Shown piece after piece: positions 2,517 to 27,165 of a stretch of 64,000 bases of DNA (positions are counted from its first letter, which is position 1; each line of letters begins with the position of its first letter). The position numbers and the translations under genes were made by a program. Source of the DNA: Myxococcota bacterium (GTDB lineage: Bacteria > Myxococcota_A > SURF-8). The stretch spans positions 1,216,001 to 1,280,000 of the forward strand of contig CAXXQS010000002.1 in assembly GCA_963674735.2 (NCBI GenBank), read 5' to 3'. The notes under the pieces are model-generated. The model had not been told where the DNA came from, did no database searches, and saw nothing but the letters and a program-made list of their open reading frames with translations.

Positions 2517-3871
2517 CCCGGCAAAAAATCGATGCTGATCTGATCGAGCGGGTCGCCAAGGGGACGGCGACGGCGACGGAATGCGACCACCTGGAAAAGG
2601 CGGCCGCCATCGATCCGGTGTTACGTGAACAATTGGCGCTTTACCGTGCTTTGCCGGAAGCGGTTCGTCCGCCTCAACTCGACGAGGCGGACTGGATGCG
2701 TCTTGAGAGGCGCGTAATGGCCGCCTGGGAGTCCGAGTCCCCCCGAACGCCGGTCCGAGTTCCCGCTTGGGCCTTTTCCGCCTTTTACGGGGCGCTGGCG
2801 TTGGTCTTGGTAATCATGGGTGCCATGTTGGTAAATCGGACCGACCTACCGACCGAATCCGATACGGCTTTCAAACTGACCGCTCCCCCGCAGCCTTTCG
2901 ACACCGGTTTCCCCGGACCGCGCGGTTTGACCGCCGCTGTAACCATCGATGAACGCAAGGGAAATCCCTATGTGGGCATTCACAGCCTGGCGCGGGGTTG
3001 GGTGCAGGGCGGCGACGAGATCGTCACGGCCGCCGACGAGCAGGTCACGCTAAGTCTGGGTAAACGCGCCACTTTCACTTTAAAGGCCGAGTCGGCGCTA
3101 CGCTTTCACGAGTACAAAGGCCGTGTATCGCCTTATCTGGCTTACGGCGAGATCGACTGCCGGATTCAGCACGACCCGTCCCGTCCGTTCATTCTGCTGA
3201 CCCCCGAGGCGCGCTTGATCGATATCGGCACGGAGTTTACGGTCGTGGTCGATCCCGAAAACGATACGCATCGGGTCTCGGTGCGCGAAGGAGCGGTGCG
3301 GGTGGAGCGGCGTGGAGCGACGGCGGAGGTGCATCCGGGTGAGGAAGCCGATTGGAGCTCGAAGCGGCGCGGCGTGCGGGTTCGGGCGGTGCCGCCGCCG
3401 ACCAAGCCGGAGGTTCGTCCGCCTCAGGTGAGCGGAATTCCCGATCGGCCCGAACGCGAACCGGCTAAGCAGCCGCGTATCGAACCGGCGCCTGCGAAAC
3501 CGCAAGTCCCGCAACCCCGGATGGACGAACCGGCTCAGGTGCAGGTGACGCGGACTTCCTGGCAACGAACCCTCGAAGCGCTGCCGACGCCCGTACGTGG
3601 TCGGATCGTTCGATTCTACGACACGGTGGAGCGGCAGATGGGTTCCGGATACACGCAACGGGCCATTCTCAATTTGGAGAATTTCCTCGATCGCCAGCGC
3701 GGTCCGGAACGGGAAAAGGCCGAATTTCTTTTGAGTGAATGCCATTATCAGCTTCAGGCGTATGCGAAAGCACAGGCCGCCTTCCTGCATTACATCCAAA
3801 CCTATCCCGACGGCACCTGGTCGGAAATGGCGCGTTTCCGTTTTGCCGAGCTAAGCCGAAAAACGCGTTGA
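2513..3871 (+). CDS. FecR-domain anti-sigma factor with Pro-rich linker and C-terminal TPR
   Basis: ATGA overlap with the sigma stop; single TM helix; FecR motif TPEARLIDIGTEFTV...VSVREGAVRV; TPR-like end YIQTYPDG. Confidence 0.8.
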   Translation: MTRQKIDADLIERVAKGTATATECDHLEKAAAIDPVLREQLALYRALPEAVRPPQLDEADWMRLERRVMAAWESESPRTPVRVPAWAFSAFYGALALVLVIMGAMLVNRTDLPTESDTAFKLTAPPQPFDTGFPGPRGLTAAVTIDERKGNPYVGIHSLARGWVQGGDEIVTAADEQVTLSLGKRATFTLKAESALRFHEYKGRVSPYLAYGEIDCRIQHDPSRPFILLTPEARLIDIGTEFTVVVDPENDTHRVSVREGAVRVERRGATAEVHPGEEADWSSKRRGVRVRAVPPPTKPEVRPPQVSGIPDRPEREPAKQPRIEPAPAKPQVPQPRMDEPAQVQVTRTSWQRTLEALPTPVRGRIVRFYDTVERQMGSGYTQRAILNLENFLDRQRGPEREKAEFLLSECHYQLQAYAKAQAAFLHYIQTYPDGTWSEMARFRFAELSRKTR

Positions 3872-3956
3872 TCCCGATCCATTCGGATTCGAAAAATCGG
3901 CGAACCGACCGGAATGAGGGAGGAAAATGCGGGCGGCAGTCAATAGCGCCTCTGCG

Positions 3957-5402
3957 TTAATTTCCCTTTTTCTCCAAACCGAAGATCGAGGCGCCGCGCA
4001 CGTTTTCGTCGATGACATGCGGGCTCAGGATGGAGGGAAAGGCGCGTTCGGAGCAGTCCATGCGTTCGCACAGGCGGCAGGTGACGCCGATGGGGACGGC
4101 GGCGTCCGGGTTGTCGAGGTCAACGCCGTCGCTGTAAATCATTTCACGGGCGTAACTGATTTCGCAACCCAGATCGATGGCCTGCATGGCTTGATGGGGC
4201 GAATAGACGCCGCTGCTTTTGTGAATGGTGCGCGCCACCGAAAAATAGGTGGATCCGTTGGGCATGCGCGAGACCTGGGTTTGGATATGTCCGGGCGTGA
4301 GCAGGGCCGAGAAGACGTTCCACTTGGCGCAGCCTCCTGAAAAGCGGGCGAAGCGGATACCCGAACCGGAAAACTTTTTCGAGATGTTGCCGGCGATATC
4401 GACGCGGATGAAGTAAAAAGGCAGCGCTTCCATCCCCGGGCGGCGCAACGAGGTGAGGCGCTGACACACCTGCTCGAAACCGGTATAGAACTGCCGTGCC
4501 AGGTATTCGATATCATAGCGACTTTCACGCGCGATCTTGTAGAAACGCTCGTACGGCATGATGATCGCCCCGGCGAAATAATTGGCCAGGGCCAGCTTGG
4601 TGAGCTTGCGCGATTGATCGGTGGTCAGATTGGCGTCGTGGGTGAGGAATTCCAGCGTCTCTCCCTGGGAAAGGAACGACAACTGATGCGCCAGATGAAA
4701 AATCTGGCTACGCGGCGGAATCGTCTCGCTAAGCGTCAGGGTGCGTGTTTCCGGATCGTAACGCCTTAAAAATTCTCCCGTTTTTCGACTGCTGCGTGTC
4801 TCGACTTTAACCCCGAACGCCTCTTTCAAGTAGTTCATCAAACCGAGATACAGGTTGTGGCGGTCGAGCTTGGCCTCCTGCCAGATGCGTTCCGCGCCCT
4901 CTTCCAGCGTGGGGAAGTAGTTCATGTGTTGCTGGAACATGTCGCTCACTTCCTCGGAAGGCAGGGTGGAGCGATCCATGCCGGAATAGTCGTCCGAATC
5001 CGACAGGCGGGCGGCGAGGGTCTGAGCCGATTCGCGAGTGCCCTGGTAGGAGCGGTAGAGAATTTTGATGGCCGCCGAAATACTGGGGGAAACCGTCACG
5101 ATTTCGCGAATGTCGCTGGTGGTGAGGCGCTGGTCTTCGAAGATGGGATCGGAAAAGACTTCGATCAGATCGGAAATCAGGCGCGCATTATCGTCCATCG
5201 CCAAGGATTGAATATCGAGATTGAACAACTTGGCAAGCTTGATGAGCAGCTCGGCCGACATGGGGCGGCGGTTGTTTTCGATGAGGTTCAAGTAGCTTAC
5301 CGAAATTCCAAGACGCTCGGCCAGTTGCTTCTGCGTCAGGTTTTCACGACGGCGCAACGCCCGCACTCGGACACCCAACCTGACGGAACTTTTTTCCTTC
5401 AT
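3957..5402 (-). CDS. ramB: XRE-family short-chain fatty acyl-CoA regulator (RamB/PrpR/ScfR type)
   Basis: N-terminal XRE HTH (LTQKQLAERLGISVSYLNLIENNRRP), ANYFAGA, and C-terminal IGVTCRLCERMDCSERAFP Cys motif; divergent from aceB-aceA. Confidence 0.85.
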   Translation of the reverse strand: MKEKSSVRLGVRVRALRRRENLTQKQLAERLGISVSYLNLIENNRRPMSAELLIKLAKLFNLDIQSLAMDDNARLISDLIEVFSDPIFEDQRLTTSDIREIVTVSPSISAAIKILYRSYQGTRESAQTLAARLSDSDDYSGMDRSTLPSEEVSDMFQQHMNYFPTLEEGAERIWQEAKLDRHNLYLGLMNYLKEAFGVKVETRSSRKTGEFLRRYDPETRTLTLSETIPPRSQIFHLAHQLSFLSQGETLEFLTHDANLTTDQSRKLTKLALANYFAGAIIMPYERFYKIARESRYDIEYLARQFYTGFEQVCQRLTSLRRPGMEALPFYFIRVDIAGNISKKFSGSGIRFARFSGGCAKWNVFSALLTPGHIQTQVSRMPNGSTYFSVARTIHKSSGVYSPHQAMQAIDLGCEISYAREMIYSDGVDLDNPDAAVPIGVTCRLCERMDCSERAFPSILSPHVIDENVRGASIFGLEKKGN

Positions 5403-5610: not shown

Positions 5611-7224
5611 ATGAGCATGACCCGCAGCGGAACAGGGATCGAAGTCCTGGGTCCGATAAATAATACCTTCAATGAGATCTTAACTCCCGAAGCCTTGGCT
5701 TTCGTGGCCGATCTTTCACGCCGCTTCAGTCCGCGGGTGGAGGAACTGCTTGAACGCCGCAAGGTTGTTCAGGCGGGTTTGGATGCCGATGACAAACTCG
5801 ATTTTCTTAGTGAAACCGAAGACATTCGCAATGGAGACTGGACGGTGGCGCCGGTTCCGGAGGACATTCAAGACCGGCGCGTGGAAATCACCGGACCGGT
5901 CGAACGGAAAATGATCATCAATGCGCTGAACTCCGGGGCCAATGTATTCATGGCCGATTTCGAAGACGCCAATGCTCCCACCTGGGACAACCTGTTGCAG
6001 GGGCAGATCAACCTGCGCGACGCCGTAAACGGAACCATCGATTACACCGACCCGATCAAGGGGAAACACTACAGTCTCAACGATCGGCGGGCCGTTCTTT
6101 TCGTTCGCCCGCGTGGGTGGCATCTGGCGGAACAACACCTGCATGTGGATGGCAAAGCGGTGCCGGGCGGACTGTTCGATTTCGGACTTTACTTCTTCCA
6201 CAACGCGAAAACGCGGGTCGAGAAGGGTACGGCTCCCTATTTTTATCTTCCCAAGCTGCAAAGCCACCTGGAGGCGCGTCTTTGGAATGATGTGTTCGTC
6301 TACTCCCAACAAGCTCTCGGCCTGCCGAACGGGACCATCAAGGCCACGGTTTTGATCGAAACTCTTCCGGCGGCGTTCCAGATGGATGAAATCCTATATG
6401 AATTGCGCGACCATTCGGCCGGACTGAATTGCGGGCGTTGGGACTATATCTTCAGCTATATCAAAACCTTCCGCAACCACCCGGCGTATGTCATTCCCGA
6501 TCGCGGCTTGGTGACGATGGAACAACCCTTCATGCGTGCTTACACCCAGAACCTGGTGAAGACCTGCCACCGGCGCAACGCCTTCGCCATGGGCGGCATG
6601 GCGGCTTTTATCCCGATCAAAAACGACCCGGCGGCCAACGAAGAGGTCATGGAACGCGTGCGGCAGGACAAGCTGCGTGAAGTGACCGATGGTCACGACG
6701 GCACCTGGGTGGCGCATCCGGGTCTGGTGGCGCTGGCGCGCGAAGTCTTCGATGCCCACATGACGACGCCCAACCAGTTGCACGTCAAGCGCGAAGACGT
6801 CCAGGTGACCGCAGCCGACCTGCAGCGTGTACCCGAGGGTGCGCGCACGGAAGCGGGTCTGCGCAACAACACGCGCGTGGGCGTGCAGTATATCGAGGCC
6901 TGGTTGGGTGGCAATGGTTGCGTTCCGCTCTATAACCTCATGGAGGATGCCGCCACCGCCGAAATCGCCCGCACCCAGGTGTGGCAGTGGATCCACCACA
7001 AAGCCACCCTGGACGACGGGGCTCCGCTGACGCCCGAACGCTTCCGAGCCGTTTTGAATGAAGAGATGGAGGTGATTCGCTCCGAAGTGGGAGATGCCCG
7101 GTTCAAGGCGGGGCGTTTCGAGAAAGCACGCGATCTTTTCGAACGGTTGTCCACCTCGGAAACCTTCGACGAGTTTCTGACGCTCCCGGCTTACGAATAT
7201 ATCCTGACGCCGAATGCCTCGTAA
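5611..7224 (+). CDS. aceB: malate synthase A
   Basis: DRRVEITGP, MADFED, VRPRGWHL, GLNCGRWDYIFS and LMEDAATAEI motifs; AGGAG RBS before ATG 5611. Confidence 0.97.
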   Translation: MSMTRSGTGIEVLGPINNTFNEILTPEALAFVADLSRRFSPRVEELLERRKVVQAGLDADDKLDFLSETEDIRNGDWTVAPVPEDIQDRRVEITGPVERKMIINALNSGANVFMADFEDANAPTWDNLLQGQINLRDAVNGTIDYTDPIKGKHYSLNDRRAVLFVRPRGWHLAEQHLHVDGKAVPGGLFDFGLYFFHNAKTRVEKGTAPYFYLPKLQSHLEARLWNDVFVYSQQALGLPNGTIKATVLIETLPAAFQMDEILYELRDHSAGLNCGRWDYIFSYIKTFRNHPAYVIPDRGLVTMEQPFMRAYTQNLVKTCHRRNAFAMGGMAAFIPIKNDPAANEEVMERVRQDKLREVTDGHDGTWVAHPGLVALAREVFDAHMTTPNQLHVKREDVQVTAADLQRVPEGARTEAGLRNNTRVGVQYIEAWLGGNGCVPLYNLMEDAATAEIARTQVWQWIHHKATLDDGAPLTPERFRAVLNEEMEVIRSEVGDARFKAGRFEKARDLFERLSTSETFDEFLTLPAYEYILTPNAS

Positions 7225-7295
7225 GGGCCGGGCGTAAATCTGTGGGAGAAATCCATTTCCGGCAATGAATGAGAGTTAATCAAAGGAGATACACG

Positions 7296-8561
7296 ATGAG
7301 CAAGGCGACCTGGAAAAGCTATGAAGAACTGGCACCGGCCCGGTTCGAAGGGATTGTACGGCCTTATTCCGCGGCGGATGTCGAACGGCTCAGGGGTTCG
7401 ATGAAGATCGAATACACCTTGGCCGATCAGGGCGCCAAGCGTCTGTGGGAGTTGATCAACAACCGCGATTACGTTCACGGTCTGGGCGCCATTACCGGCA
7501 ATCAGGCGGTGCAGATGGTTCGGGCGGGTCTGGAAGCCATTTATCTCAGCGGCTGGCAGGTGGCGGCCGACGGCAATCTGGCGGGACAAACCTATCCCGA
7601 CCAGAGTTTGTATCCTTCGAATTCGGTTCCGGCCATGGTCGGTCGCATCAACCGCGCCCTCCAGCGCGCCGATCAGATCGACCATAGCGAAGGGAAAACG
7701 GGTACTTATTGGTATGCCCCGATCATCGCCGATGCCGAAGCGGGTTTCGGAGGACCGCTCAACGTATACGAGATGATGAAGGGCATGATCGAGGCCGGGG
7801 CCTCGGCGGTGCATTACGAAGACCAGTTGTCGTCGGAGAAAAAATGCGGCCATCTGGGGGGGAAGGTGTTGATTCCCACCAGCCAGTTCATTCGCACGCT
7901 CGTGGCGGCGCGTCTGGCGGCGGACGTCATGGATGTCCCCACCGTCCTGATCGCCCGCACCGATGCGGAGGCGGCCAAGTTGCTGACCTCGGATATCGAT
8001 GAGGCCGATAAACCTTTCCTGACCGGCGAACGCTCCCCCGAAGGTTTCTATTACATCAAAAACGGTCTCGAAACGGCCATTGCGCGTGCCGTGAGCTACG
8101 CGCCCTATGCCGACCTGCTTTGGTGCGAAACCCAGACTCCGGACCTGGAGGCGGCCAAGCAGTTTGCCGATGGCGTGCACGACAAATATCCCAATCAGGC
8201 GCTGGCCTATAACTGCTCGCCCTCCTTCAACTGGAACAAACATATGGATGACGCCCAGCTGAAAGTTTTCCAGCGCGAACTGGGGGCTATGGGGTACAAA
8301 TTCCAGTTCATCACCCTGGCCGGTTTCCATTCGCTCAATTACGGAATTTTCGATCTGGCCAAGAAATACACCACCGAAGGCATGTGGGCCTACGGGCGTC
8401 TGCAGCGCTACGAGTTGGAAGCGGAAAAGGAAGGCTACACCGCGACCAAACACCAGCATGAAGTGGGCACCGGCTATTTCGACGAAGTGGCTTCCGTGAT
8501 CAGTGGCGGCAAGGCGTCCACCCTGGCGCTCAAGGAATCCACCGAGACCAAGCAATTCTGA
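7296..8561 (+). CDS. aceA: isocitrate lyase
   Basis: Catalytic [26 protein letters not shown] and [10 protein letters not shown]; AAGGAG RBS. Confidence 0.98.
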
Positions 8562-10832: not shown

Positions 10833-10891
10833 AAGTCGCGGAGGTCAAGATGTTCGATTACACGAATTACGTCAGTCGAGGGAATGAAACC

Positions 10892-13800
10892 ATGTGGCGT
10901 CTCCCTGAATGGATAAGCGTCGGGATTCTGACTTTGTTGGTGGGGTTGTTCACGCTGGGTTGCGATCCGATGAACAAGCTGGCCAATCTGGTGACGGGCG
11001 AGGGAGATTGCGAACGAGCGGTGGGGCATCTCGATGAATGTTGCCGGGACACCGCCTCCGCCAGCTACCCGGCCGCCTGTTCCGCCTTCAATGCCGGTGT
11101 CAGCGAAGCGCTTCTCAACTCCCTGATCATGGTCTGCGAGGAAGCGGGGGCCGAGTTCATAGGTGAGGACGGCGCACGTTTGTCCGCCTCCGATGCCGCC
11201 GGACTCGACTGCGAGTCGTTTCTGTCGAGACTGGAGGAGATTTACGGCTCCAGCGATGGCGACACGGATGGGGATGAGGATGGCGATACCGACGAATTTG
11301 AAATTCCCGAGCAGGAAACGGATGAGGATGTCGACGGGGATAAGCCCGCCTGCAATGAGGGGCAAGGTTGCGACGACAACGATCCTTGCACCGAAAATGA
11401 TATGTGTGAGGACGGCCTTTGCGAGGGATCGCCGCTCGATTGTAGTTCGTTTGAAGATCTCTGTAACGATGCGGCCTGCGTAAACGGTGCGTGTGTCAAA
11501 ACGCCGATCAACGATGGGGCGTCCTGTGGCGAGGGTCCCGACGCCTGTGTGCCGCTGGTCTGTCAACAGGGCGATTGCGTTCAGGAACCGCTGGCCGACG
11601 ACAGCCTCTGCAACGATGAAGATCCCTGTACACAAGACGACCATTGCGTGGAATCGGTTTGCACCGGAACGCCGAAAATCTGCGCCGACACGAATGCCTG
11701 TACCGCCGATTCCTGCGACAGTACGACCGGCGACTGCGTGTTCGACCCGGTCGCGATGAACAGTGAAAGCTGCAACGACAACGACGCCTGCACCGTTAAC
11801 GACGTTTGCGCGGCCGGAATCTGCGCCGGGGCGGCCAAGGATTGTTCCGGTTTGGACGACGCGTGCAACGAAGGCGTCTGCGGAGACGGCGGGATCTGCG
11901 AAAAGAGTCCGACCAACCAGGGGGGAAACTGCAACGACGGCAATCTCTGCACCGAAAACGACAGCTGCGATTCGGGTATCTGCGCCGGGACGGCGAAAGT
12001 CTGTGCCGACAGCGAGTTCTGCACCTCGGATTACTGCAATGAGGCGACCGGTTTGTGTGTTTTCAACGGGGATCTGATGGAAAACACGGGTTGCAACGAC
12101 AATGATGCCTGCACGGTGGGGGATCGCTGCACGGGTGGAAGCTGCGTGCCGACGGGGCCGAAAGATTGTAGCGCTTTCGATGACGACTGCAATGAAGGCG
12201 TTTGCAACGAAGGTACCTGCTCGGCCAGTCCGATCAATGAAGCGGGAGAGTGCAACGATAACAACAAGTGCACCTTGAACGATACCTGCGAACAAGGGGT
12301 GTGCGGCGGAGATGCGAAGAACTGCGACGACGGCAAGTTCTGCACCAGCGATTCCTGCGAGCCATCTTCCGGCAACTGCCTGAACAATCCCTTCCCCATG
12401 CAAGGGGAGGATTGCGACGACGAGGACGATTGCACCGTCGGTGACCGCTGTGTGAGCGGCGCGTGTCTGCCGACCGGTCCGCGGGATTGTTCGGCTTTCG
12501 CCGATGCCTGCAACGATGGTGTTTGCGAAGAGGGAAGCTGTTCGGCGCAGCCCAAAGAAGATCTGACGCCATGCAACGACAAAGATTCCTGTACGGTCGG
12601 TGATCGCTGCGTGAGCGGAGACTGCCTACCGACCGGTCCCCTGGACTGCAGCGCGTTTGACGACACCTGTAACGAAGGAGTGTGCAGCGGCGGCGTCTGC
12701 TCGGCCAGCCCAATCAACGAAGAAGGCGATTGCGATGACGAGGACGATTGCACGGTCGGTGATCGCTGCGTGAGCGGAGACTGCCTACCGACCGGTCCGC
12801 TGGACTGCAGCGCTTTCGACGACGCCTGCAACGAGGGTGTGTGCAGCGGCGGTACCTGTTCGGCCAGCCCAATCAACGAAGAGGGCGGCTGCGACGACGA
12901 GGATGATTGCACGGTGGGTGACCGCTGCGTGAGCGGCGACTGCCTGCCGACCGGTCCCCTGGACTGCAGCGCTTTCGACGACGCCTGCAACGAGGGTGTG
13001 TGCAGCGGCGGTGTCTGCTCGGCCAGCCCGATCAATGAGGCGGGCGAGTGCGACGATGACGATGATTGCACCATCGGTGATCGCTGCGTGAGCGGAGACT
13101 GCCTGCCGACCGGTCCCCTGGACTGCAGCGCGTTTGACGACACCTGCAACGAGGGTGTGTGCAGCGGTGGTGTCTGCTCGGCCAGCCCGATCAATGAGGC
13201 GGGCGAGTGCGACGATGACGATGATTGCACCATCGGTGATCGCTGCGTGAGCGGAGACTGCCTGCCGACCGGTCCGCTGGACTGCAGCGCTTTCGACGAC
13301 GCCTGCAACGAGGGTGTGTGCAGCGGCGGCGTCTGCTCGGCCAGCCCGATCAATGAGGATGGCGAATGCAACGATGACGATGATTGCACCATCGGTGATC
13401 GCTGCGTGAGCGGAGACTGCCTGCCGACCGGTCCGCTGGACTGCAGCGCTTTCGACGACGCCTGCAACGAGGGTGTGTGCAGCGGCGGCGTCTGCTCGGC
13501 CAGCCCGATCAATGAGGATGGCGAATGCAACGATGACGATGATTGCACCATCGGTGATCGCTGCGTGAGCGGCGACTGCCTCGGCGACGCCGTGGACTGC
13601 TCGGCGTTTTCGAACCAGTGCAACGACGGAATCTGTGTGGACAACCTGGGCGCGCCGCAGTGCGTGGCGGATCCGCTGCCGGAAGGCACGCCCTGCGACG
13701 ATACCGATCCGGGCACCTTCAACGACGCCTGCGACGAAACGGGCCTGTGCGCCGGCGACACGCTGCCGCAGAGCACCGACCCGACTTCCGGGCGGCTGGC

Positions 13801-16390
13801 ACTGACCCTGCCTGTCGAGGCCGGTCCACTGGTCGATACGGTCTGTATTCACGTCACGCTGAGTGGCGCGGATCTGTCGAGTGCGGGCGTGGAATTTACG
13901 AGTGCGGAAGGAACCCTGCTCGATCCGCCGCTGGCCGATCATCCGGCGGCCGTCTCACCGCTCGACATCGAACTCGAAAGCACGCAATTCGCAGGTGAGG
14001 AACGTGCGGGAGATTGGGTGCTCGAAGTTCAGGTAGACGACCCCGGCGTCCCGGCGACGGTCGACGTCTTCACCCTCGATTTCGCCGCCTGCCCGGTGAT
14101 CGACGGCGATATGGATGATGAACTGGAGCTTGAGGACGAGCTTGAGGATGAGTTGGAGCTTGAAGACGAAATCGAAGCCGAGCCTGAAACCGACGGCGAT
14201 GCGGAGGTTGAAACCGAGACCGGCCCTTTTTTCGTTCCCATTGAGGCGGGGTCTTTCTGGATGGGCAGCCCTAGCGGTTGCCCGGGACCGGACGGTTATC
14301 CCGGCGATTGCACGGCCGAGTTGGGGCGAGAATCGGACGAGACGCTGCATTACGTGGAGTTGACCTATGACTTCGAGTTGATGACTACGGAGGTTACGCA
14401 GGGCCAGTGGCGTGCTGTTGCCCAAGCGGAAGGTTGGGGCGAAGACCCGAGCTACTATTCTGCTTGTGGCGACGACTGTCCGGTGGAACTCGTAAGCTGG
14501 TTTGAGGTATTGGAATACGCCAATGCGTTAAGTCGAAATGCTGGACTGACGGAATGTTACGTTCTTTCTGGTTGCACGGGGACCATCGGTTCGGGATGTG
14601 GCGGCAACTATTACTGCTATGACGGTTATAGCTGTACGACCGTGAGCTTGAACGGTGTGACGAAACCGCAGGACTGTGAAGGGTACAGATTGCCGACAGA
14701 AGCGGAGTGGGAATATTCGATCCGAGCAGGAACGACAACAGCGTTTTATAATGGTGGGATAACCCAACAATACCGAGATCCGTTAGATCCCAATCTGGAT
14801 GAAATCGGGTGGTATGGCGGCAATTCGGGAGTTGACTATTCTGGAGGGTGGAACTGTAGTGGCTGGTATCCGGGTTCAACGACTTGCGGCACCCATCCTG
14901 TAGCGTCTAAAGCACCCAACGCCTGGGGTTTGTATGACATGAGCGGCAACCTTTGGGAGTGGACCTGGGACTGGTATCAGAGTGCGTATCAGAACGATTT
15001 AGATACTGACCCAATAGGACCGAGTACAGGCTCGTACCGCGTCGATCGTGGCGGCAGTTGGGGCCACTACGCGTGGTACTGCCGGTCGGCGGGCCGTCTT
15101 TACTACTCGCCCGGCGCTCGCAGCAACCGCGTCGGTGCCCGTCTCTGTAGGTCGATTTCGGGCGGCACGCCCGACGGTGACATGGATGAAGAACTGGAGC
15201 TCGACGACGAGCTTGAACTCGAAATCGAACAGGAAGAGGAAATCGACGGCGACGCGGACGAAGAATTTGAGCTTGAGGACGAGCTTGAGGACGACCTCGA
15301 CATCGAGTGGGAAAACGACCTCGACACCGACGGCGATGCGGAGCTTGAGGACACCGAGTTCATTTACGCCACCGGCTTCTGCGACACCAACCTCTGCTGG
15401 CCCGTCCTGCCCACCAACCAGGACGGCTGCTTCAGCACGTCGAGTTCCATCACCTGCCCCGACACGGCGGGTTCGGAAACCTGTGGAACAACCGATTACT
15501 GCGGCCAGGACGCGCAGTATTCCCACAACTCGCGCACCTTCGACTGTTACGACGCCCTCGGGGCGCTGCAAGACCCCTGCGACGAAACCGCCGACGTCGA
15601 CGAGGTAGTGGTCGATACCTTCACCGGCCTGATGTGGCAGCGCCAGCTACCCACACTTTACGACGGCTGCACGGGCGGCACCACCAGCGGAACCTACTGC
15701 AAATGGCAGGAGGCGCTCGATTACTGCGACGGGCTGGACTACGGCGGCTATCAGGACTGGCGGCTGCCTGCGCCGCACGAACTCTACAGCCTCATGGACG
15801 CCGCGACGCGCGGCGTCGCCATCGATCTGGACGTGTTCGTAGGGACGCCCATGACGCTTTTCTGGACCTCCGCGCCCTACGCCGGCAGTTCCTCGAATGC
15901 GTGGTACGTCAATTTCTCGCGGGGCATCGTCGACTATACGAGCAAAACGTATACGAGCAAGGCCCGCTGCGTCCGCGGCGGCCCGGCGGAATCGGACGCC
16001 CCGGCAAGCGAGCGCTGGGTGGTGTCGGGCGAAGTGGACGAAGAGATCGTGACGGATCGGCTCACCGGCCTGATCTGGCAGAAAACCATCCCGGCGAGTC
16101 GATACTGGACGGAAGCCCTGGCTTACTGCGAAAGCCTTACTTACGCCGGGCGCAGCGACTGGCGCTTGCCGACGGCACACGAGCTGCAAAGCCTGGTCGA
16201 TTACGGGTTGGACCATCCGGCCTCGACGCTGCCCGGCATGGCGTCCTCCACCGTGTTCTGGTCTTCGACCACCAGCGTGGACTACGCCGATACGGCCTAT
16301 TACATGCGCGTGTCCAGCGGTGGGTTGGGCGACACTTACGACAAGACCATCAATCAGTACTGGCCGCGCTGCGTCACCGGCGGGCCGTAA
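10892..16390 (+). CDS. giant Cys-rich surface lipoprotein: Cys repeats, P-domain-like module, FGE-sulfatase (SUMF1) domain and two DUF1566 domains
   Basis: Lipobox TLGC; CDDxDxCTxD repeats; FGE motifs (TTEVTQGQW, YRLPTEAEWEY, PNAWGLYDMSGNLWEW, RGGSW); two DxxTGLxWQ...WRLPxxxEL...RCV domains. Confidence 0.9.
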   Translation: MWRLPEWISVGILTLLVGLFTLGCDPMNKLANLVTGEGDCERAVGHLDECCRDTASASYPAACSAFNAGVSEALLNSLIMVCEEAGAEFIGEDGARLSASDAAGLDCESFLSRLEEIYGSSDGDTDGDEDGDTDEFEIPEQETDEDVDGDKPACNEGQGCDDNDPCTENDMCEDGLCEGSPLDCSSFEDLCNDAACVNGACVKTPINDGASCGEGPDACVPLVCQQGDCVQEPLADDSLCNDEDPCTQDDHCVESVCTGTPKICADTNACTADSCDSTTGDCVFDPVAMNSESCNDNDACTVNDVCAAGICAGAAKDCSGLDDACNEGVCGDGGICEKSPTNQGGNCNDGNLCTENDSCDSGICAGTAKVCADSEFCTSDYCNEATGLCVFNGDLMENTGCNDNDACTVGDRCTGGSCVPTGPKDCSAFDDDCNEGVCNEGTCSASPINEAGECNDNNKCTLNDTCEQGVCGGDAKNCDDGKFCTSDSCEPSSGNCLNNPFPMQGEDCDDEDDCTVGDRCVSGACLPTGPRDCSAFADACNDGVCEEGSCSAQPKEDLTPCNDKDSCTVGDRCVSGDCLPTGPLDCSAFDDTCNEGVCSGGVCSASPINEEGDCDDEDDCTVGDRCVSGDCLPTGPLDCSAFDDACNEGVCSGGTCSASPINEEGGCDDEDDCTVGDRCVSGDCLPTGPLDCSAFDDACNEGVCSGGVCSASPINEAGECDDDDDCTIGDRCVSGDCLPTGPLDCSAFDDTCNEGVCSGGVCSASPINEAGECDDDDDCTIGDRCVSGDCLPTGPLDCSAFDDACNEGVCSGGVCSASPINEDGECNDDDDCTIGDRCVSGDCLPTGPLDCSAFDDACNEGVCSGGVCSASPINEDGECNDDDDCTIGDRCVSGDCLGDAVDCSAFSNQCNDGICVDNLGAPQCVADPLPEGTPCDDTDPGTFNDACDETGLCAGDTLPQSTDPTSGRLALTLPVEAGPLVDTVCIHVTLSGADLSSAGVEFTSAEGTLLDPPLADHPAAVSPLDIELESTQFAGEERAGDWVLEVQVDDPGVPATVDVFTLDFAACPVIDGDMDDELELEDELEDELELEDEIEAEPETDGDAEVETETGPFFVPIEAGSFWMGSPSGCPGPDGYPGDCTAELGRESDETLHYVELTYDFELMTTEVTQGQWRAVAQAEGWGEDPSYYSACGDDCPVELVSWFEVLEYANALSRNAGLTECYVLSGCTGTIGSGCGGNYYCYDGYSCTTVSLNGVTKPQDCEGYRLPTEAEWEYSIRAGTTTAFYNGGITQQYRDPLDPNLDEIGWYGGNSGVDYSGGWNCSGWYPGSTTCGTHPVASKAPNAWGLYDMSGNLWEWTWDWYQSAYQNDLDTDPIGPSTGSYRVDRGGSWGHYAWYCRSAGRLYYSPGARSNRVGARLCRSISGGTPDGDMDEELELDDELELEIEQEEEIDGDADEEFELEDELEDDLDIEWENDLDTDGDAELEDTEFIYATGFCDTNLCWPVLPTNQDGCFSTSSSITCPDTAGSETCGTTDYCGQDAQYSHNSRTFDCYDALGALQDPCDETADVDEVVVDTFTGLMWQRQLPTLYDGCTGGTTSGTYCKWQEALDYCDGLDYGGYQDWRLPAPHELYSLMDAATRGVAIDLDVFVGTPMTLFWTSAPYAGSSSNAWYVNFSRGIVDYTSKTYTSKARCVRGGPAESDAPASERWVVSGEVDEEIVTDRLTGLIWQKTIPASRYWTEALAYCESLTYAGRSDWRLPTAHELQSLVDYGLDHPASTLPGMASSTVFWSSTTSVDYADTAYYMRVSSGGLGDTYDKTINQYWPRCVTGGP
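12413..13582 (+). repeat. intragenic 159-bp (53-aa) tandem repeat, 7 copies plus a partial copy
   Basis: Unit CDDxDDCTxGDRCVSGDCLPTGPLDCSAFDDACNEGVCSGGVCSASPINExGE starts at 12413, 12572, 12731, 12890, 13049, 13208, 13367 and 13526; a more diverged copy lies near 12092. Confidence 0.95.
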
Positions 16391-22451: not shown

Positions 22452-22743
22452 TCGGTTTTGGCTCCCAATTTGTCTCGACCCGCGCATTATAACCAACGTT
22501 TCAGATAAGGCCAGTGTTTCGGGTACAAAATCAGGGAAACAGGCGAACGACTCTTCCCTTCTCGTTTTTTGCTGGGGTTACGGAAATGACCCATAGTTGA
22601 CAAAGCGTAGAGCGGATGCTATCAATAGCCATTCCGTGAGTCAAGGCAAGGGGAACCAGTGGGTCGGTGCTGGATGGATCATGGATCGCCGAATTGCAGG
22701 CAGGAACAAGCGCTTGCCTGATAACGGAAGTTTGGAGCAAGCG

Positions 22744-24474
22744 ATGGAAAAGACGCTGGCTTTGGTGATTGACGACCAGGAATCGATCCGAAAAACCTTC
22801 CGGTTTTTTCTGGAAGAGGAGGGTTATGAGGTCGCCACAGCCGGAACCTACGAAGACGGGATGGCGGTGATTGCCGAGCGTACTCCATCGGTCGCCTTGA
22901 TCGATATCATTCTCGGCAGTCGTAGCGGCGTTGATTTTCTTCGTGAAATCAAACATTTCGAGATGGAGTTCCCGGTTGTCATGATCACGGGGGAACCCAA
23001 TCTGGAAACCGCCACCGATGCTCTGCGTCTCGGAGCCTTCGATTATCTAGCCAAGCCGGTCGATAAGCGCAAGTTACTCGATGTCACGTACCGTGCCACA
23101 CGCTACAACGAGCTTCTGGCCGAACGTCGCCGTGCCCAGGAAGACCGCGAACACGCCCGGCAGCAACTTCTGGCTGTTTTCAATGGTGTGGGCGAAGGTT
23201 TGATTCTCATCAACGGTGAGGGGCGGGTACGCGAAATCAACCAGGCCACCTTGCAACTGCTGGGTTTTCCCCGTGATGAAGCGATCGACCGTCCGCTGGA
23301 GCAGTTGTTTCCGCGTGTGGCGGATGTCATGAACGACGGCCTCCAGGATGTCTTGAAAAGGAACAAACAACAGGCCGAAGCAACGGTCGATGATCCTTTC
23401 CGTCGGGGTGGCAAGGAAGTGTTTCATGCCAAGATTTCGCCTTCAGCCGAACGCGCCGGGCAACGAGGTGCGGTGGTCGTTTTACGCGACATCACGCGCC
23501 TGCGCGCTTTGGAGCAACATGTCAGCGAGCGGACGCGGGTGCATAATCTGATCGGTAAAAGCAAACCGATGCAGGAGATCTACCACTTGGTGGAAGTGCT
23601 GCGCGATACCGATACCACGGTTCTGATTCAAGGGGAGAGTGGTACCGGAAAAGAACTGGTGGCCGCCGCTTTGCATTACCAGGGTCCGCGAGCGCGGGGA
23701 CCGTTTATTCCGGTCAACTGTACGGCGCTCAACGAGCAACTGCTTGAGTCGGAGCTTTTCGGACACGCCAAAGGCTCGTTTACCGGAGCGATCGCCAACA
23801 AAATCGGTCGCTTCGAAGCGGCGGAGGGGGGGACGATTTTCCTCGACGAAATCGGTGATGTCTCTTCCAAATTGCAGACGAAATTATTGCGTGCGCTGCA
23901 GGAGCGAACCGTTGAACGAGTCGGTGAATCCCGTCCACGCAAGGTGGATGTGCGTGTCGTGGCCGCCACCAATGTCGATCTTGACGCCAAGGTGAAGGAA
24001 GGGGCCTTCCGTGAGGACCTTTTTTATCGTCTCAACGTGGTGCGCGTCATGATGCCCGCCCTGCGCGATAAAAAAGAAGATATCCCCCTTCTGGCCGAAC
24101 ATTTTCGGCAAAAACTACTGACACGTTTAACCAAACCGATTGAGGGCTATACCGACGAAGCGTTCCGTCTGATGCTGATACACGAATGGCCGGGGAATGT
24201 GCGTGAGTTGGAAAACGCTGTGGAACATGCCTTTATCATGAGCAACGGACCCCTGATCGATGCCGTGCATCTGCCTAAAACCGTTCGTGAACCCAGCGAC
24301 TTGCTTAATGCCGGTCGCGGTGCGGGTGGCATGAGCGAACGTGAGCAAATTCTTGAAGCCTTGGTAAAAAGCGCCGGAAATCGCAGCAAGGCCGCCAATA
24401 TGCTGGGGATCAACCGCACTACGCTTTATCGACGCATGCAGCGTTGGAATATCGCCGATCCGACCCGCCTCTAG
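22744..24474 (+). CDS. sigma54-dependent response regulator (REC-PAS-AAA+-Fis HTH)
   Basis: REC domain (VIDD, LIDI, DYLAKP); PAS (GLILINGEGRV); GESGTGKE, ESELFGHAKGSFTGA, FLDEIG, WPGNVREL; C-terminal HTH. Confidence 0.93.
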   Translation: MEKTLALVIDDQESIRKTFRFFLEEEGYEVATAGTYEDGMAVIAERTPSVALIDIILGSRSGVDFLREIKHFEMEFPVVMITGEPNLETATDALRLGAFDYLAKPVDKRKLLDVTYRATRYNELLAERRRAQEDREHARQQLLAVFNGVGEGLILINGEGRVREINQATLQLLGFPRDEAIDRPLEQLFPRVADVMNDGLQDVLKRNKQQAEATVDDPFRRGGKEVFHAKISPSAERAGQRGAVVVLRDITRLRALEQHVSERTRVHNLIGKSKPMQEIYHLVEVLRDTDTTVLIQGESGTGKELVAAALHYQGPRARGPFIPVNCTALNEQLLESELFGHAKGSFTGAIANKIGRFEAAEGGTIFLDEIGDVSSKLQTKLLRALQERTVERVGESRPRKVDVRVVAATNVDLDAKVKEGAFREDLFYRLNVVRVMMPALRDKKEDIPLLAEHFRQKLLTRLTKPIEGYTDEAFRLMLIHEWPGNVRELENAVEHAFIMSNGPLIDAVHLPKTVREPSDLLNAGRGAGGMSEREQILEALVKSAGNRSKAANMLGINRTTLYRRMQRWNIADPTRL

Positions 24475-24475
24475 C

Positions 24476-24517
24476 GCAACACTAGTGTTGCACCAACCTG
24501 TTGCACTATCTGCAACA
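24476..24517. promoter_or_regulatory. candidate enhancer (UAS) inverted repeats
   Basis: Perfect palindrome GCAACACTAGTGTTGC (24476-24491) and TGTTGCA-N5-TGCAACA (24499-24517), about 110-150 bp upstream of a sigma54 promoter. Confidence 0.65.
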
Positions 24518-24623
24518 CTTCACTCCGGATATCCCTGTATGCCTCGTTCAATTTTTTGTCTTTAGTTGTGTAAATCCTTGTAATTACTTATCATTGTTTG
24601 TAAAACGACCTTTACGTGGTTGT

Positions 24624-24639
24624 TGGCACACATATTGCT
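24624..24639 (+). promoter_or_regulatory. sigma54 (-24/-12) promoter
   Basis: TGGCAC-ACATA-TTGCT matches the consensus TGGCAC-N5-TTGCW; AT-rich stretch between it and the UAS. Confidence 0.8.
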
Positions 24640-24649
24640 TAGAGTTTAC

Positions 24650-25022
24650 TTGGAATTGATAACCTCTACTTTCAACCAAGCGACCCAGCCATCCGAGAAC
24701 GCCGTCTTGCTGGAGTGTTTGGTTTGTAACCGACGCGTTTTTACACATCTTTTGGTGAACATTGGTTCTTTGATTTGCAGTTGCAAATATTACTCTTTTT
24801 GAGTGTAATGTTTGGTGTGTTTTGAGCGCTTGGCGGAACCGCACGCCGTCTCGTCGCAACGGGCTCCTCGGATCCTCGACCCACTTCAAACCCAGTCCGA
24901 TCCCGGAAAAGCCGGGGAAGCCTGAAATCCTCCCAAGTGGTTTGTGCGGAACTCCTAAGGTTAATTCCCTCCCTGTGTGTGCCCCCTCCACCCGATTGGT
25001 GTGAGGGGGCGCTCTCTTTTAA
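24650..25022 (+). ncRNA. candidate sigma54-dependent small RNA (about 370 nt)
   Basis: Begins at the predicted sigma54 start; no convincing ORF; several internal stems; ends in a GCCCCCTC...GAGGGGGC hairpin followed by GCTCTCTTTT. Confidence 0.5.
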
Positions 25023-25186
25023 TTTGTTGCAGATCGTTGTTTGGGATAAACGCAAAAAATGCGCTTCGCGTCTGAGGGAAAACCGGCTTGGGACGATCAA
25101 TTCGATTAATTTTCAAAAGTAGCGGAATGTCATGGATATCCTGGCTATCTAGCAACACATATAGCTGTTGCCTAAGGAGATGTTGG

Positions 25187-25639
25187 GTGAGATTAACAAA
25201 AGCGAGTGATTACGCCCTGCGCCTGATGACCAGTTTGGCCATGGTAGAAAGGGATGCAATTGTCAGTATTCGGGAAATGGCCATGCGTACCGATGTTCCG
25301 CGAAGCTTTTTGGCGAATATCGCCCAGAAGTTGTCGGCGGCCGGTTTGATCGATAGTTCGAAAGGGGCGCGGGGGGGGCTAAAGTTAAAACGCAAGCCGG
25401 ATGAGATTACGGCTCTGGATATCATCGAGGCGATCGAAGGACCGTTGGAGTTTTCCACCTGCCAATCGATGGATGGGTGCCGCCATGAGGATTATTGCAG
25501 TGTCCGCCCATTGATGGAGACTTTGCGCGAGCAGGTAGCCGAAACGCTCGGTTCAACGACCTTGTCCATGTTGGTGGAACAGGGGAGCGGGCAGTTCTGG
25601 GGTGCTTTCTCGCTTATGGATTCCTCTTCCGGGTCGTAA
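25187..25639 (+). CDS. Rrf2-family transcriptional regulator (likely Fe-S binding)
   Basis: LTKASDYALR, SSKGARGG and IIEAIEG motifs; three Cys (CQSMDGCRHEDYC); AAGGAG before GTG 25187. Confidence 0.9.
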   Translation: MRLTKASDYALRLMTSLAMVERDAIVSIREMAMRTDVPRSFLANIAQKLSAAGLIDSSKGARGGLKLKRKPDEITALDIIEAIEGPLEFSTCQSMDGCRHEDYCSVRPLMETLREQVAETLGSTTLSMLVEQGSGQFWGAFSLMDSSSGS

Positions 25640-26441
25640 GTCCGGTTAAAAGTTCCTCCAACTCATTCAGGTCGATCATGCAAGATGCATCGGAGAGCGC
25701 CTTTTCCGGGCTGTCGTGCACTTCCAGAAACAATCCGTCGATACCGAATGCCACCGCCGCCCGCGCGAGCGGTTGAACGAAAAGCGGGCTACCGCCGCTT
25801 TTTCCGGTGGCGGCCGATGGCCGTTGCACCGAGTGGGTGGCGTCGAAGATTACCGGTGCACCCAATTCCCGCATCCAAGCAAAAGAGCGAAAATCCACGA
25901 CCAGATCGTGGTAGCCGAAGGCGGTTCCCCTCTCGGTCAGCAGGACGTTCGACGCACCGGCGGAGCGGGCTTTCTCCAAGGCGTATTGCATGTCGGGTGG
26001 CGCGACGAATTGCCCTTTTTTCAGGTTGATCGTGCGACCCGTGGCGGCGGCGGCGACGATCAGGTCGGTTTGGCGGCTGAGAAAAGCTGGGATTTGAATG
26101 ATATCGAGAACTTCAGCTGCCGGGGCTGCCTGACCGGGCTCGTGGATATCGGATAAAATCGGTAGCCCGGTGCGGTGTTTGACGCTTTCGAGAATGGCCA
26201 GACCGCGTTTCAATCCCGGACCGCGATAGCTGTTCAGGCTGGTTCGGTTGGCTTTGTCGAACGACGCCTTGAAGATCAGAGGAATTTCATAGCGTTGGGC
26301 GATGTCGGCGAGATGGTCGGCCATCATCAACGCATGCGCCTCCGATTCGATGACGCAGGGACCGGCGATCAGAAAAAGCGGCGCACCCTCCCCGGCGGAT
26401 ATACCCGGGGCGATCTTGAATGCGCGTGATTCAGCGTGCAT
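25614..26441 (-). CDS. kdsA: KDO-8-phosphate synthase
   Basis: IAGPCVIES, KASFDKANRTS, QIPAFLSRQTDL, KKGQF and DATHSVQRP; true start is ATG 26441, overlapping the kdsB end. Confidence 0.96.
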   Translation of the reverse strand: MHAESRAFKIAPGISAGEGAPLFLIAGPCVIESEAHALMMADHLADIAQRYEIPLIFKASFDKANRTSLNSYRGPGLKRGLAILESVKHRTGLPILSDIHEPGQAAPAAEVLDIIQIPAFLSRQTDLIVAAAATGRTINLKKGQFVAPPDMQYALEKARSAGASNVLLTERGTAFGYHDLVVDFRSFAWMRELGAPVIFDATHSVQRPSAATGKSGGSPLFVQPLARAAVAFGIDGLFLEVHDSPEKALSDASCMIDLNELEELLTGLTTRKRNP

Positions 26442-27165
26442 GGAAAATCCTCCGTACGCGTTCCAGGTCGTCAGGCGTGTTGACTTCTTCCACCTCGAAT
26501 TCCGGCAAGGTGGCCACGGCCAGCTTTTTTCCCGCTTCCAACCAGCGCAGTTGTTCCAATTTCTCGCGTCGTTCCCCCGAAGAAGGAGCGAGGGCGGCAA
26601 AATCGGCCAACGCCTGGGGATGGAAGGCGTAGAGTCCCACATGTCGCCATGGATCCCCCTGATCGCCGAGTGATGCGCAATGGCGCGCAAAAGTGAGGGC
26701 TTCGCCTCGATCATCGATCCATACCTTCACGACCCCGGGATTCTGCCGTTCCCCTTCGTCACGCAAAGGAACGGCCAGAGTGCTCATCCGGGCCGCGTTC
26801 TCCTCTTGCAAAGGGGCGAGCAAGGCGGTGATGGCGCGGTCGGTCAGACCCAGAACATCCGCCTGCAGATTGATGATCCACCCGGCTTCGGGGACATGGA
26901 CGGCCGCCTCGGCGCAGCGGTCGCTGCCGCAGGGATGTTCGCCCGTCAAAACCGCTTCCGCTCCGGCCTGATTGGCCGCCGCTTCGATATCCGGGTCGTC
27001 GGTCGCGACCACGACCCGGTCCACGGAATGCAAATCCAGCGCTTGGCGGACGACGTGGAAAATCAGCGGGTGACCGTCGATGAGGGCTAAAGGTTTGTTG
27101 GGCAGGCGTGTCGATCCGGCACGAGCCGGAATAACGGCCACTATTTGTGATCGGCGCAGCGGCAT
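26431..27165 (-). CDS. kdsB: CMP-KDO synthetase
   Basis: IPARAGSTRLPNKPL, GSDRCAE, INLQAD, HVGLYAF and EKLEQLRWLE. Confidence 0.93.
   Translation of the reverse strand: MPLRRSQIVAVIPARAGSTRLPNKPLALIDGHPLIFHVVRQALDLHSVDRVVVATDDPDIEAAANQAGAEAVLTGEHPCGSDRCAEAAVHVPEAGWIINLQADVLGLTDRAITALLAPLQEENAARMSTLAVPLRDEGERQNPGVVKVWIDDRGEALTFARHCASLGDQGDPWRHVGLYAFHPQALADFAALAPSSGERREKLEQLRWLEAGKKLAVATLPEFEVEEVNTPDDLERVRRIFHAR

Follow-up and report, generated by a model that had tools for sequence, protein, structure and literature searches.

A sigma-54 unit directly behind its putative activator

Within a window of 64,000 nucleotides (nt) from a Myxococcota genome (contig CAXXQS010000002.1, positions 1,216,001-1,280,000), we analyzed a plus-strand unit at 24,476-25,022 as a candidate gene for a non-coding RNA. 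The unit opens immediately behind the gene of a sigma-54 activator, or bacterial enhancer-binding protein (bEBP), with two inverted repeats built on TGTTGC. It continues through a T-rich spacer to a promoter of the -24/-12 type and is completed by about 370 nt that hold no credible open reading frame (ORF) and are closed by a strong hairpin and a U-run (Table 1). A sequence-only reading of the same DNA had described this succession, from the REC-PAS-AAA+ activator through the repeats, the AT-rich spacer and the promoter to a protein-free stretch with a terminator-like hairpin near its end, and each of these elements was recovered in place. Comparisons were drawn between the source genome (G000; 5.26 Mb, 94% complete) and two relatives from the same small uncultured class, G003 and G004, the latter belonging to another genus. 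Three DNA sequencing runs returned contigs identical to the window, with zero variants inside the unit, and supplied no third sequence for comparison.

Table 1. Features of the unit and its immediate surroundings, in window coordinates.
Feature	Position	Strand	Basis	Remarks
Sigma-54 activator gene (bEBP), REC-PAS-AAA+-HTH_8	22744..24474	+	Pfam domains	576 codons
Putative enhancer site 1, perfect 18-nt palindrome GCAACACTAGTGTTGCAC	24476..24493	.		2 nt past the activator stop
Putative enhancer site 2, TGTTGCA-N5-TGCAACA(CT)	24499..24519	.	sequence, genome pattern search	repeat proper to 24517
T-rich spacer, repeats to promoter	24520..24623	.		64% A+T, 44% T; window 42% A+T
Sigma-54 promoter TGGCAC-N5-TTGCT	24624..24639	+	strict genome pattern match	TGGCAC 24624-24629, TTGCT 24635-24639
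Variable 5' segment of predicted transcript	24650..24859	+	unconserved versus G004 (z -0.4)	no shared ORF
Stem P1 with C-rich loop	24860..24924	+	minimum-energy fold of both genomes	24860-24871 with 24912-24924; 40-nt loop 24872-24911; conserved core 24874-24908
Conserved C/U-rich tracts	24925..24974	+	two-sequence alignments	UCCUCCC at 24928, UGUGCGGAACUCC at about 24943, UCCCUCCC at 24966
Predicted intrinsic terminator	24975..25024	+	folding versus shuffles	hairpin 24975-25016, then UCUCUUUUAAUU
Palindrome GCAACA-N8-TGTTGC	25152..25171	.		just upstream of the rrf2 ribosome-binding site; may belong to the module
Rrf2-family regulator gene	25187..25639	+	Pfam Rrf2	GTG start; AAGGAG 25174-25179; module neighbour in G000 only

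The activator carries the Pfam domains Response_reg, PAS, Sigma54_activat, AAA_lid_14 and HTH_8. Its open frame begins at 22597 and ends with a TAG stop at 24472-24474; alignment with the G003 and G004 orthologues and a GGAG 8 nt upstream make the ATG at 22744 the probable start. The sigma-54 contact loop (window 23770-23790, residues ~344-349) reads GSFTGA in the source genome and GAFTGA in both orthologues, and a published list of Desulfovibrio vulgaris enhancer-binding proteins includes a GSFTGA regulator (PMC4641369). The protein reaches no NCBIfam equivalog cut-off (LuxO model, 318 bits against a cut-off of 800), and a Pfam search of its neighbours in the window found no adjoining histidine-kinase gene. 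Full-length orthologues, each 66% identical, occur only in G003 and G004, so that, with the source genome counted, the activator is present in 3 of 6 genomes of the family and 3 of 10 of the class. The helix-turn-helix (HTH) of the G004 protein is near-identical to that of the source genome, and that of the G003 protein is the same. The 5' untranslated regions (UTRs) of the activator genes in the source genome (window 22650-22745) and in G004 (locus 1465-1480) share the word GGCAA(A/G)GGGAAC, which gave no significant pairing with the RNA.

Repeats and promoter exceed chance expectation

Motif rarity was evaluated over the whole source genome. The pattern GCAACA-N4-TGTTGC has a single occurrence, which is site 1 of the unit. 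Close inverted pairs of TGTTGC and GCAACA number 15 genome-wide, and three of these lie within 700 base pairs (bp) of the locus. The strict promoter pattern, searched on both strands, returned 13 matches versus 4 for the reversed control, several of the 13 sharing the extended form TTGGCACA-N4-TTGCTTA that is found at the locus. Repeats and promoter thus exceed chance expectation. Their geometry is also that of a sigma-54 promoter with upstream activation: the palindromes are centred ~142 and ~116 bp upstream of the GG of the -24 element, within the ~80-150 bp expected of inverted-repeat enhancer sites. The gene rpoN is present in all three genomes (G000, G003 and G004). From the usual spacing to the -12 element, transcription would start near 24650.

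The half-sites of the enhancer repeats recur, at another spacing, in the palindrome just before the downstream rrf2 gene. G004 has neither this palindrome nor an rrf2 gene at the corresponding place, and Rrf2 itself might use the element as its operator, or the activator might bind it as a second site. The half-site TGTTGCA is also used at another sigma-54 promoter of the lineage.

Conservation as a module in a second genus

Global alignment of the source genome with G004, scored segment by segment as z against shuffled sequences, returned values of 3.7 for the repeat region, 3.9 for the promoter, -0.4 for the 5' ~200 nt of the predicted transcript, 7.7 for its 3' ~170-185 nt and 0.5 for the 200 nt past the terminator. 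Conservation is therefore confined to the repeats, the promoter and the 3' ~165 nt, which marks this 3' domain as the conserved part of the RNA. In G004 the activator orthologue is likewise followed by the 18-mer palindrome, a -24/-12 promoter, a stretch of ~395 nt free of ORFs, the conserved core and its own terminator. There the 18-mer lies 3 nt past the stop codon and differs from its counterpart in two central bases only, with a second copy (two mismatches) 33 bp on; TGTTGC/GCAACA pairs also occupy the second zone, at spacings that differ from those of site 2 in the source genome. The G004 promoter reads TGGCAT-N5-TTGCA and lies ~134 bp from the first palindrome.

The surroundings of the two units have nothing in common. 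In the source genome the module sits between a TPR/PMT_2 glycosyltransferase gene (minus strand) and rrf2 (plus), the latter followed by a DAHP-synthase-family gene (minus); in G004 it is flanked by an MMPL transporter gene (plus) and a convergent nikR (minus), followed by a QTMAN-type glycosyltransferase gene (minus). That activator and RNA unit were kept together in a second genus though all flanking genes differ supports the view that they form a module, coupled both physically and evolutionarily. The sequence-only reading had taken the locus for a self-contained sigma-54 unit without a protein behind its activator. The unit and its retention as a module in G004 bear this out, with the qualification that only the 3' ~165 nt of the transcript are conserved.

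The same comparison bears on whether a separate RNA is made at all. The conserved block might instead be the 3' UTR and terminator of the activator mRNA, with promoter and repeat motifs serving autoregulation at the DNA level. The interval from the activator stop codon to 24975 shows no terminator, and co-transcripts of this kind are described for cbrB-crcZ (PMC6292655). A strict, conserved -24/-12 element with palindromes at the customary distance upstream (~135-145 bp) in both genomes is hard to explain unless transcription initiates there, and co-transcription would itself be compatible with a small RNA (sRNA); we consider this alternative very unlikely.

Of the 10 genomes of the class, these two have the module, and wider searches added no further member. 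A BLASTN search with the 615-nt region against 61 genomes matched the source genome only, with none of the 60 relatives recovered; it missed the real G004 counterpart and is thus too insensitive for this locus. A scan for the core motif with up to 3 mismatches matched 11 of 401 genomes of the phylum. The nine matches outside the source genome and G004 (2-3 mismatches each) were set down to chance, since the DNA around them is GC-rich and their loci show no -24/-12 motif. The exact degenerate core, searched against 185,579 species genomes, gave ten stretches, one of them the G004 locus; the other nine fall inside stop-free frames of 278-894 codons and were rejected as members. A metagenome scan with the activator reduced 29 pattern matches to one relative of 48% identity with unrelated DNA downstream. 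Finally, a covariance model built from the two 3' domains and run against 41 genomes scored only its two inputs, the next matches having E values of 0.09-0.64.

Structure of the predicted transcript

The predicted terminator hairpin has a folding energy of -28.6 kcal/mol (z -6.05), which none of 200 shuffled sequences equalled, and is followed by UUUU; a feature scan placed a terminator-like site on the plus strand at 25003-25016. The G004 unit closes with a hairpin of 13 bp (-21 kcal/mol, z -4.48) and an adjoining CUUUUUAU; relative to the source genome, three pairs of this hairpin are changed on both sides.

Upstream of the terminator, both genomes fold with the same topology, a 10-12-bp stem (P1) under a largely unpaired loop of ~40 nt that bears the conserved core and is 40% C. 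The inner P1 helix keeps all six of its pairs; in one pair both bases differ between the genomes, in another only one base does. A weak helix predicted in the C/U-rich segment 24925-24974 rests mostly on G-U pairs. The RNA has no internal repeat, and the core occurs once per genome. The sequence-only reading had listed four pairings and four C/U tracts. Each is present at a single position, and the pairings of the 5' half fall in the stretch that is unconserved in G004.

Covariation among relatives had been proposed as a check on the structure and could be evaluated for the source genome and G004, the two sequences from which the structure was itself derived. Each of the 23 predicted pairs is a standard pair in both sequences (46 of 46 cells). 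Five of the 23 have changed at both positions: one belongs to the stem, one to the weak middle helix and three to the terminator. As a control, shifting the 3' partners by 1-3 columns left 0-1 doubly changed pairs. Taken with the column shuffles discussed below, this covariation is only suggestive of the structure.

Orientation can be read from the same elements. The sequence-only reading had raised the alternative of a GGA-rich antisense RNA, in which the product would come from the minus strand and resemble CsrB. Several GGA/GGGAGG tracts do lie on that strand, and its folding (z -3.52) is on a par with that of the plus strand. No minus-strand promoter was found, however; a T-run follows the terminator on its plus side only, neither genome having one on the minus side, and both the conserved sigma-54 promoter and the terminator face the plus strand in both genomes. 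So weakened, the antisense product appears barely credible.

No coding signature

The interval 24640-25025 contains one ATG, which opens a frame of 5 codons, and all plus-strand ORFs of the unit start with TTG or GTG and reach at most 61 codons. Two long minus-strand ORFs (135 and 119 codons) had no Pfam match. Mismatches between the source genome and G004 are spread evenly over the three codon positions (13/32, 13/32 and 12/31), with no codon periodicity, and a six-frame comparison gave similar weak scores throughout, the best-scoring frame containing stops. By these measures the unit is without a coding signature.

A conserved small ORF had been named in the sequence-only reading as a finding that would overturn it, and the candidate is a frame of 60 codons at 24822-25004, starting with TTG, whose counterpart in G004 is a GTG frame of 79 codons. 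Both genomes keep this frame open through the core, and one indel between them measures 3 nt. Against a small protein stand the absence of an ATG or of a Shine-Dalgarno sequence before either start, starts that are not homologous, the even distribution of mismatches, other frames that score as well or better, and the course of both frames into or through the terminator hairpin. We regard this alternative as highly improbable.

Searches for RNA families, Hfq and targets

The sequence-only reading had also suggested an Rfam scan. Run with all 4227 models of Rfam 15, riboswitches and leaders included, it returned no family at gathering score at either locus. The best score in the window was tsr31 (19.9 bits against a cut-off of 50, E 6.4), on the terminator, and the best at the G004 locus were ceN65 (E 0.16) and RybB (E 1.4), far below their cut-offs. 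The Pxr model (RF01812, gathering score 80 bits) had no match at E<=10 in 23500-26500, at the G004 locus (3200-4100), in the source genome, in a 151-genome sample of the phylum or in 5 additional large genomes; because it matched nowhere, this search is without a positive control. A Pfam model of Hfq found no homolog in any of the three genomes and was positive in control genomes. Myxobacteria are likewise reported to lack Hfq (PMC5568312).

Predicted interactions did not single out targets and gave no support to the base-pairing role proposed in the sequence-only reading, neither prediction having power to discriminate. Duplex folding of the RNA with the 5' regions of the activator and rrf2 was no better than with shuffled targets (fractions 0.42, 0.21 and 0.44). 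When the 40-nt loop was paired with 9015 crude candidate start sites, the mean energy was -18.7 versus -18.9 for the reversed loop, and 2385 versus 2489 sites reached -22 kcal/mol or lower.

These results give some room to a different function, in which the ~370-nt transcript would be a CrcZ-like sponge that sequesters an RNA-binding protein through repeated C/U tracts. In length (370-395 nt in the two genomes) and in its place behind the activator gene it agrees with crcZ behind cbrB as described (PMC6292655), several of its C-rich tracts are similar, and the scan found no enrichment of complementary ribosome-binding sites over the reversed control. That scan is too crude to count against base-pairing, though, and the conserved elements are one long loop and two tracts with no regular repeat array. 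With no Hfq in the three genomes and no candidate partner protein, a sponge seems unlikely.

Comparison with known systems

In both the source genome and G004, a bEBP gene lies upstream on the same strand, a -24/-12 promoter is accompanied by rpoN in the genome, inverted repeats are present, and the predicted product is non-coding and ends in a terminator. The unit therefore belongs, by layout, with known pairs of a sigma-54 activator and an sRNA gene. In Vibrio, the sigma-54 sRNA gene qrr1 lies beside the activator gene luxO, whose product binds TTGCA-type palindromes; qrr1 is divergent from luxO, and Qrr sRNAs are ~100 nt long and Hfq-dependent. The present activator falls well short of the LuxO model, as given above, and the RNA has no Rfam match.

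CrcZ, from the cbrB-crcZ pair of Pseudomonas and Azotobacter, is ~400 nt long. It is described as a long, RpoN-dependent sRNA encoded directly behind an NtrC-family activator, with activator read-through transcripts also processed (PMC6292655), and it sequesters Hfq/Crc through A-rich motifs (PMC4063720). Those A-rich Hfq/Crc motifs set CrcZ apart from the present RNA, the conserved part of which is C-rich and which comes from a genome where no Hfq was found. Another pseudomonad pair, ntrC-nrsZ of P. aeruginosa, also places an sRNA in the intergenic region behind an activator gene. Its RpoN promoter is of the TGGCAC-N5-TTGCW type and activator-dependent, and its primary transcript, at least 226 nt long, yields shorter active forms on processing (PMC4253122). 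As described there, NrsZ consists of three repeated stem-loop modules with a ACAGGCAG loop motif; the present RNA has no such internal repeat and comes from a different phylum. In D. vulgaris, the response-regulator bEBPs DVU0653 and DVU0679 have, as their sole assigned regulon member, a non-coding RNA just downstream (PMC4641369). These systems have the same layout as the present unit when compared by description; they belong to a different phylum, and no Rfam family matches at the present locus.

A further parallel is pxrR (nla19)-pxr of Myxococcus xanthus and related Cystobacterineae. Behind the gene of a sigma-54 response regulator, and on its strand, lie an intergenic enhancer, a sigma-54 promoter and an sRNA gene with a terminator stem-loop, the sRNA being processed from longer forms (PMC5568312, PMC10217877). 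The present unit shares with it the order activator-enhancer-promoter-RNA-terminator and an Hfq-less lineage. As far as these sources describe the system, Pxr measures 108 nt and folds into three stem-loops; its gene is flanked by pxrR and a gene for an NADH dehydrogenase, and pxrK lies upstream. The predicted RNA of the present unit is instead ~370 nt long, has another conserved domain and lies among TPR/PMT_2 and rrf2 genes (source genome) or MMPL and nikR genes (G004). The activators differ as well: the present one has an extra PAS domain and no adjacent histidine kinase, whereas pxrK precedes pxrR in the published descriptions.

A working model and its weaknesses

On the evidence above, we favor, with a probability of about 0.6, the reading that the unit is a sigma-54 gene in its own right, dependent on the activator, and that its product is a non-coding RNA from a hitherto undescribed family. 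In the model that we infer, the activator, phosphorylated on its receiver domain and/or signalled through its PAS domain, would bind the palindromes that start 2 nt past its own stop codon. From there it would contact sigma-54 RNA polymerase at TGGCAC-N5-TTGCT across the ~105-bp T-rich spacer, giving rise to a primary transcript of ~370 nt ended by the intrinsic terminator. The working part would be the conserved 3' ~165 nt, comprising the P1 stem with its 40-nt C-rich loop, two more anti-Shine-Dalgarno-like C/U tracts and the terminator hairpin. The variable 5' half may be removed, as with the Pxr, NrsZ and CrcZ precursors. Most likely, the RNA would act in trans and without Hfq, through pairing of the C-rich loop and the CCUC/UCCC tracts with G-rich ribosome-binding regions.

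Several observations weigh against this reading, some of them concerning the coupling of activator and RNA. The G003 activator orthologue (L004 1495-3462, minus strand; 66% identity, same HTH) stands without palindrome, promoter or RNA, and the 18-mer is absent from the G003 genome, so the coupling is not obligatory. In G004, moreover, TGTTGCA/TGCAACA repeats cluster 50-100 bp upstream of another strict sigma-54 promoter (locus L046 ~4150-4285; contig C1 near 4629176), which drives a thioredoxin/DsbD-type operon divergent from the gene of a different, PAS-PAS-AAA+-HTH_8 activator. The repeats at the present locus are consequently assigned to the present activator only by inference. Other observations concern the RNA. 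The P1 stem energies are ordinary (z -1.27 and -0.61). Folding of the whole transcript shows no strand preference (z -2.97 for the plus and -3.52 for the minus strand) and gives z -0.94 in G004. The covariation values, drawn from two instances only, were matched by 19 of 500 column shuffles. Two last points lie at the downstream border of the unit: in the source genome a few additional bases separate the U-run from the main hairpin, which may allow a degree of read-through into rrf2, and no sigma-70-like promoter was predicted for rrf2 (0 sites in 24000-26000).

These border features also favor another interpretation put forward in the sequence-only reading, that the unit in the source genome is mainly a long, terminator-attenuated sigma-54 leader of rrf2. 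The gene lies on the same strand 165 nt past the terminator, and the GCAACA-N8-TGTTGC palindrome stands just before its ribosome-binding site. Its product meets the NCBIfam rrf2 superfamily model only, scoring below the cut-offs of the IscR, NsrR, CymR and RirA models. What weakens the leader interpretation is G004, where the whole unit is kept without a downstream rrf2, with a canonical terminator of its own and with the convergent nikR as next gene. The DNA past the terminator is not conserved, as the alignment scores show, and no riboswitch or leader family matches. An rrf2 leader is, in our judgment, quite unlikely.

In a bolder version of the favored reading, activator and RNA would be an ancient checkpoint module of two genes, portable among Myxococcota-like bacteria and distantly related to pxrR-pxr, with an RNA that has diverged past recognition. 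Its C-rich loop would mimic an anti-Shine-Dalgarno sequence and damp the translation of many mRNAs without Hfq whenever a PAS-sensed signal switches the activator on. We rate this proposal as speculative and rather improbable; if true, RNA checkpoints of the Pxr type would reach well outside the fruiting myxobacteria.

Should the independent RNA gene be transcribed as predicted, it would represent a new RNA family, without an Rfam match and present in 2 of 10 genomes of an uncultured class. With its regulator, enhancer sites and promoter all legible in the DNA, it would also offer a ready entry to post-transcriptional control in an Hfq-less lineage. The unit adds to a pattern in which sigma-54 activators often carry an sRNA gene directly behind them. 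That layout is already known from several phyla, and no principle is changed by the present example.

Other sites in the window and genome

A second strict sigma-54 promoter of the source genome, outside the window (contig C2, 1333063-1333078, minus strand; site within locus L045 ~6540-7760), is followed by ~520 ORF-free, C/U-rich nt before a gene for an outer-membrane beta-barrel protein, and may mark another long leader or RNA. Two inverted repeats of the form AGTGTTGC...GCAACACT (1333623-1333757) lie 550-680 bp upstream of this promoter. Within the window, an ORF of 1846 codons at 10850-16390 encodes an FGE-sulfatase domain and two Lcl C-terminal domains.

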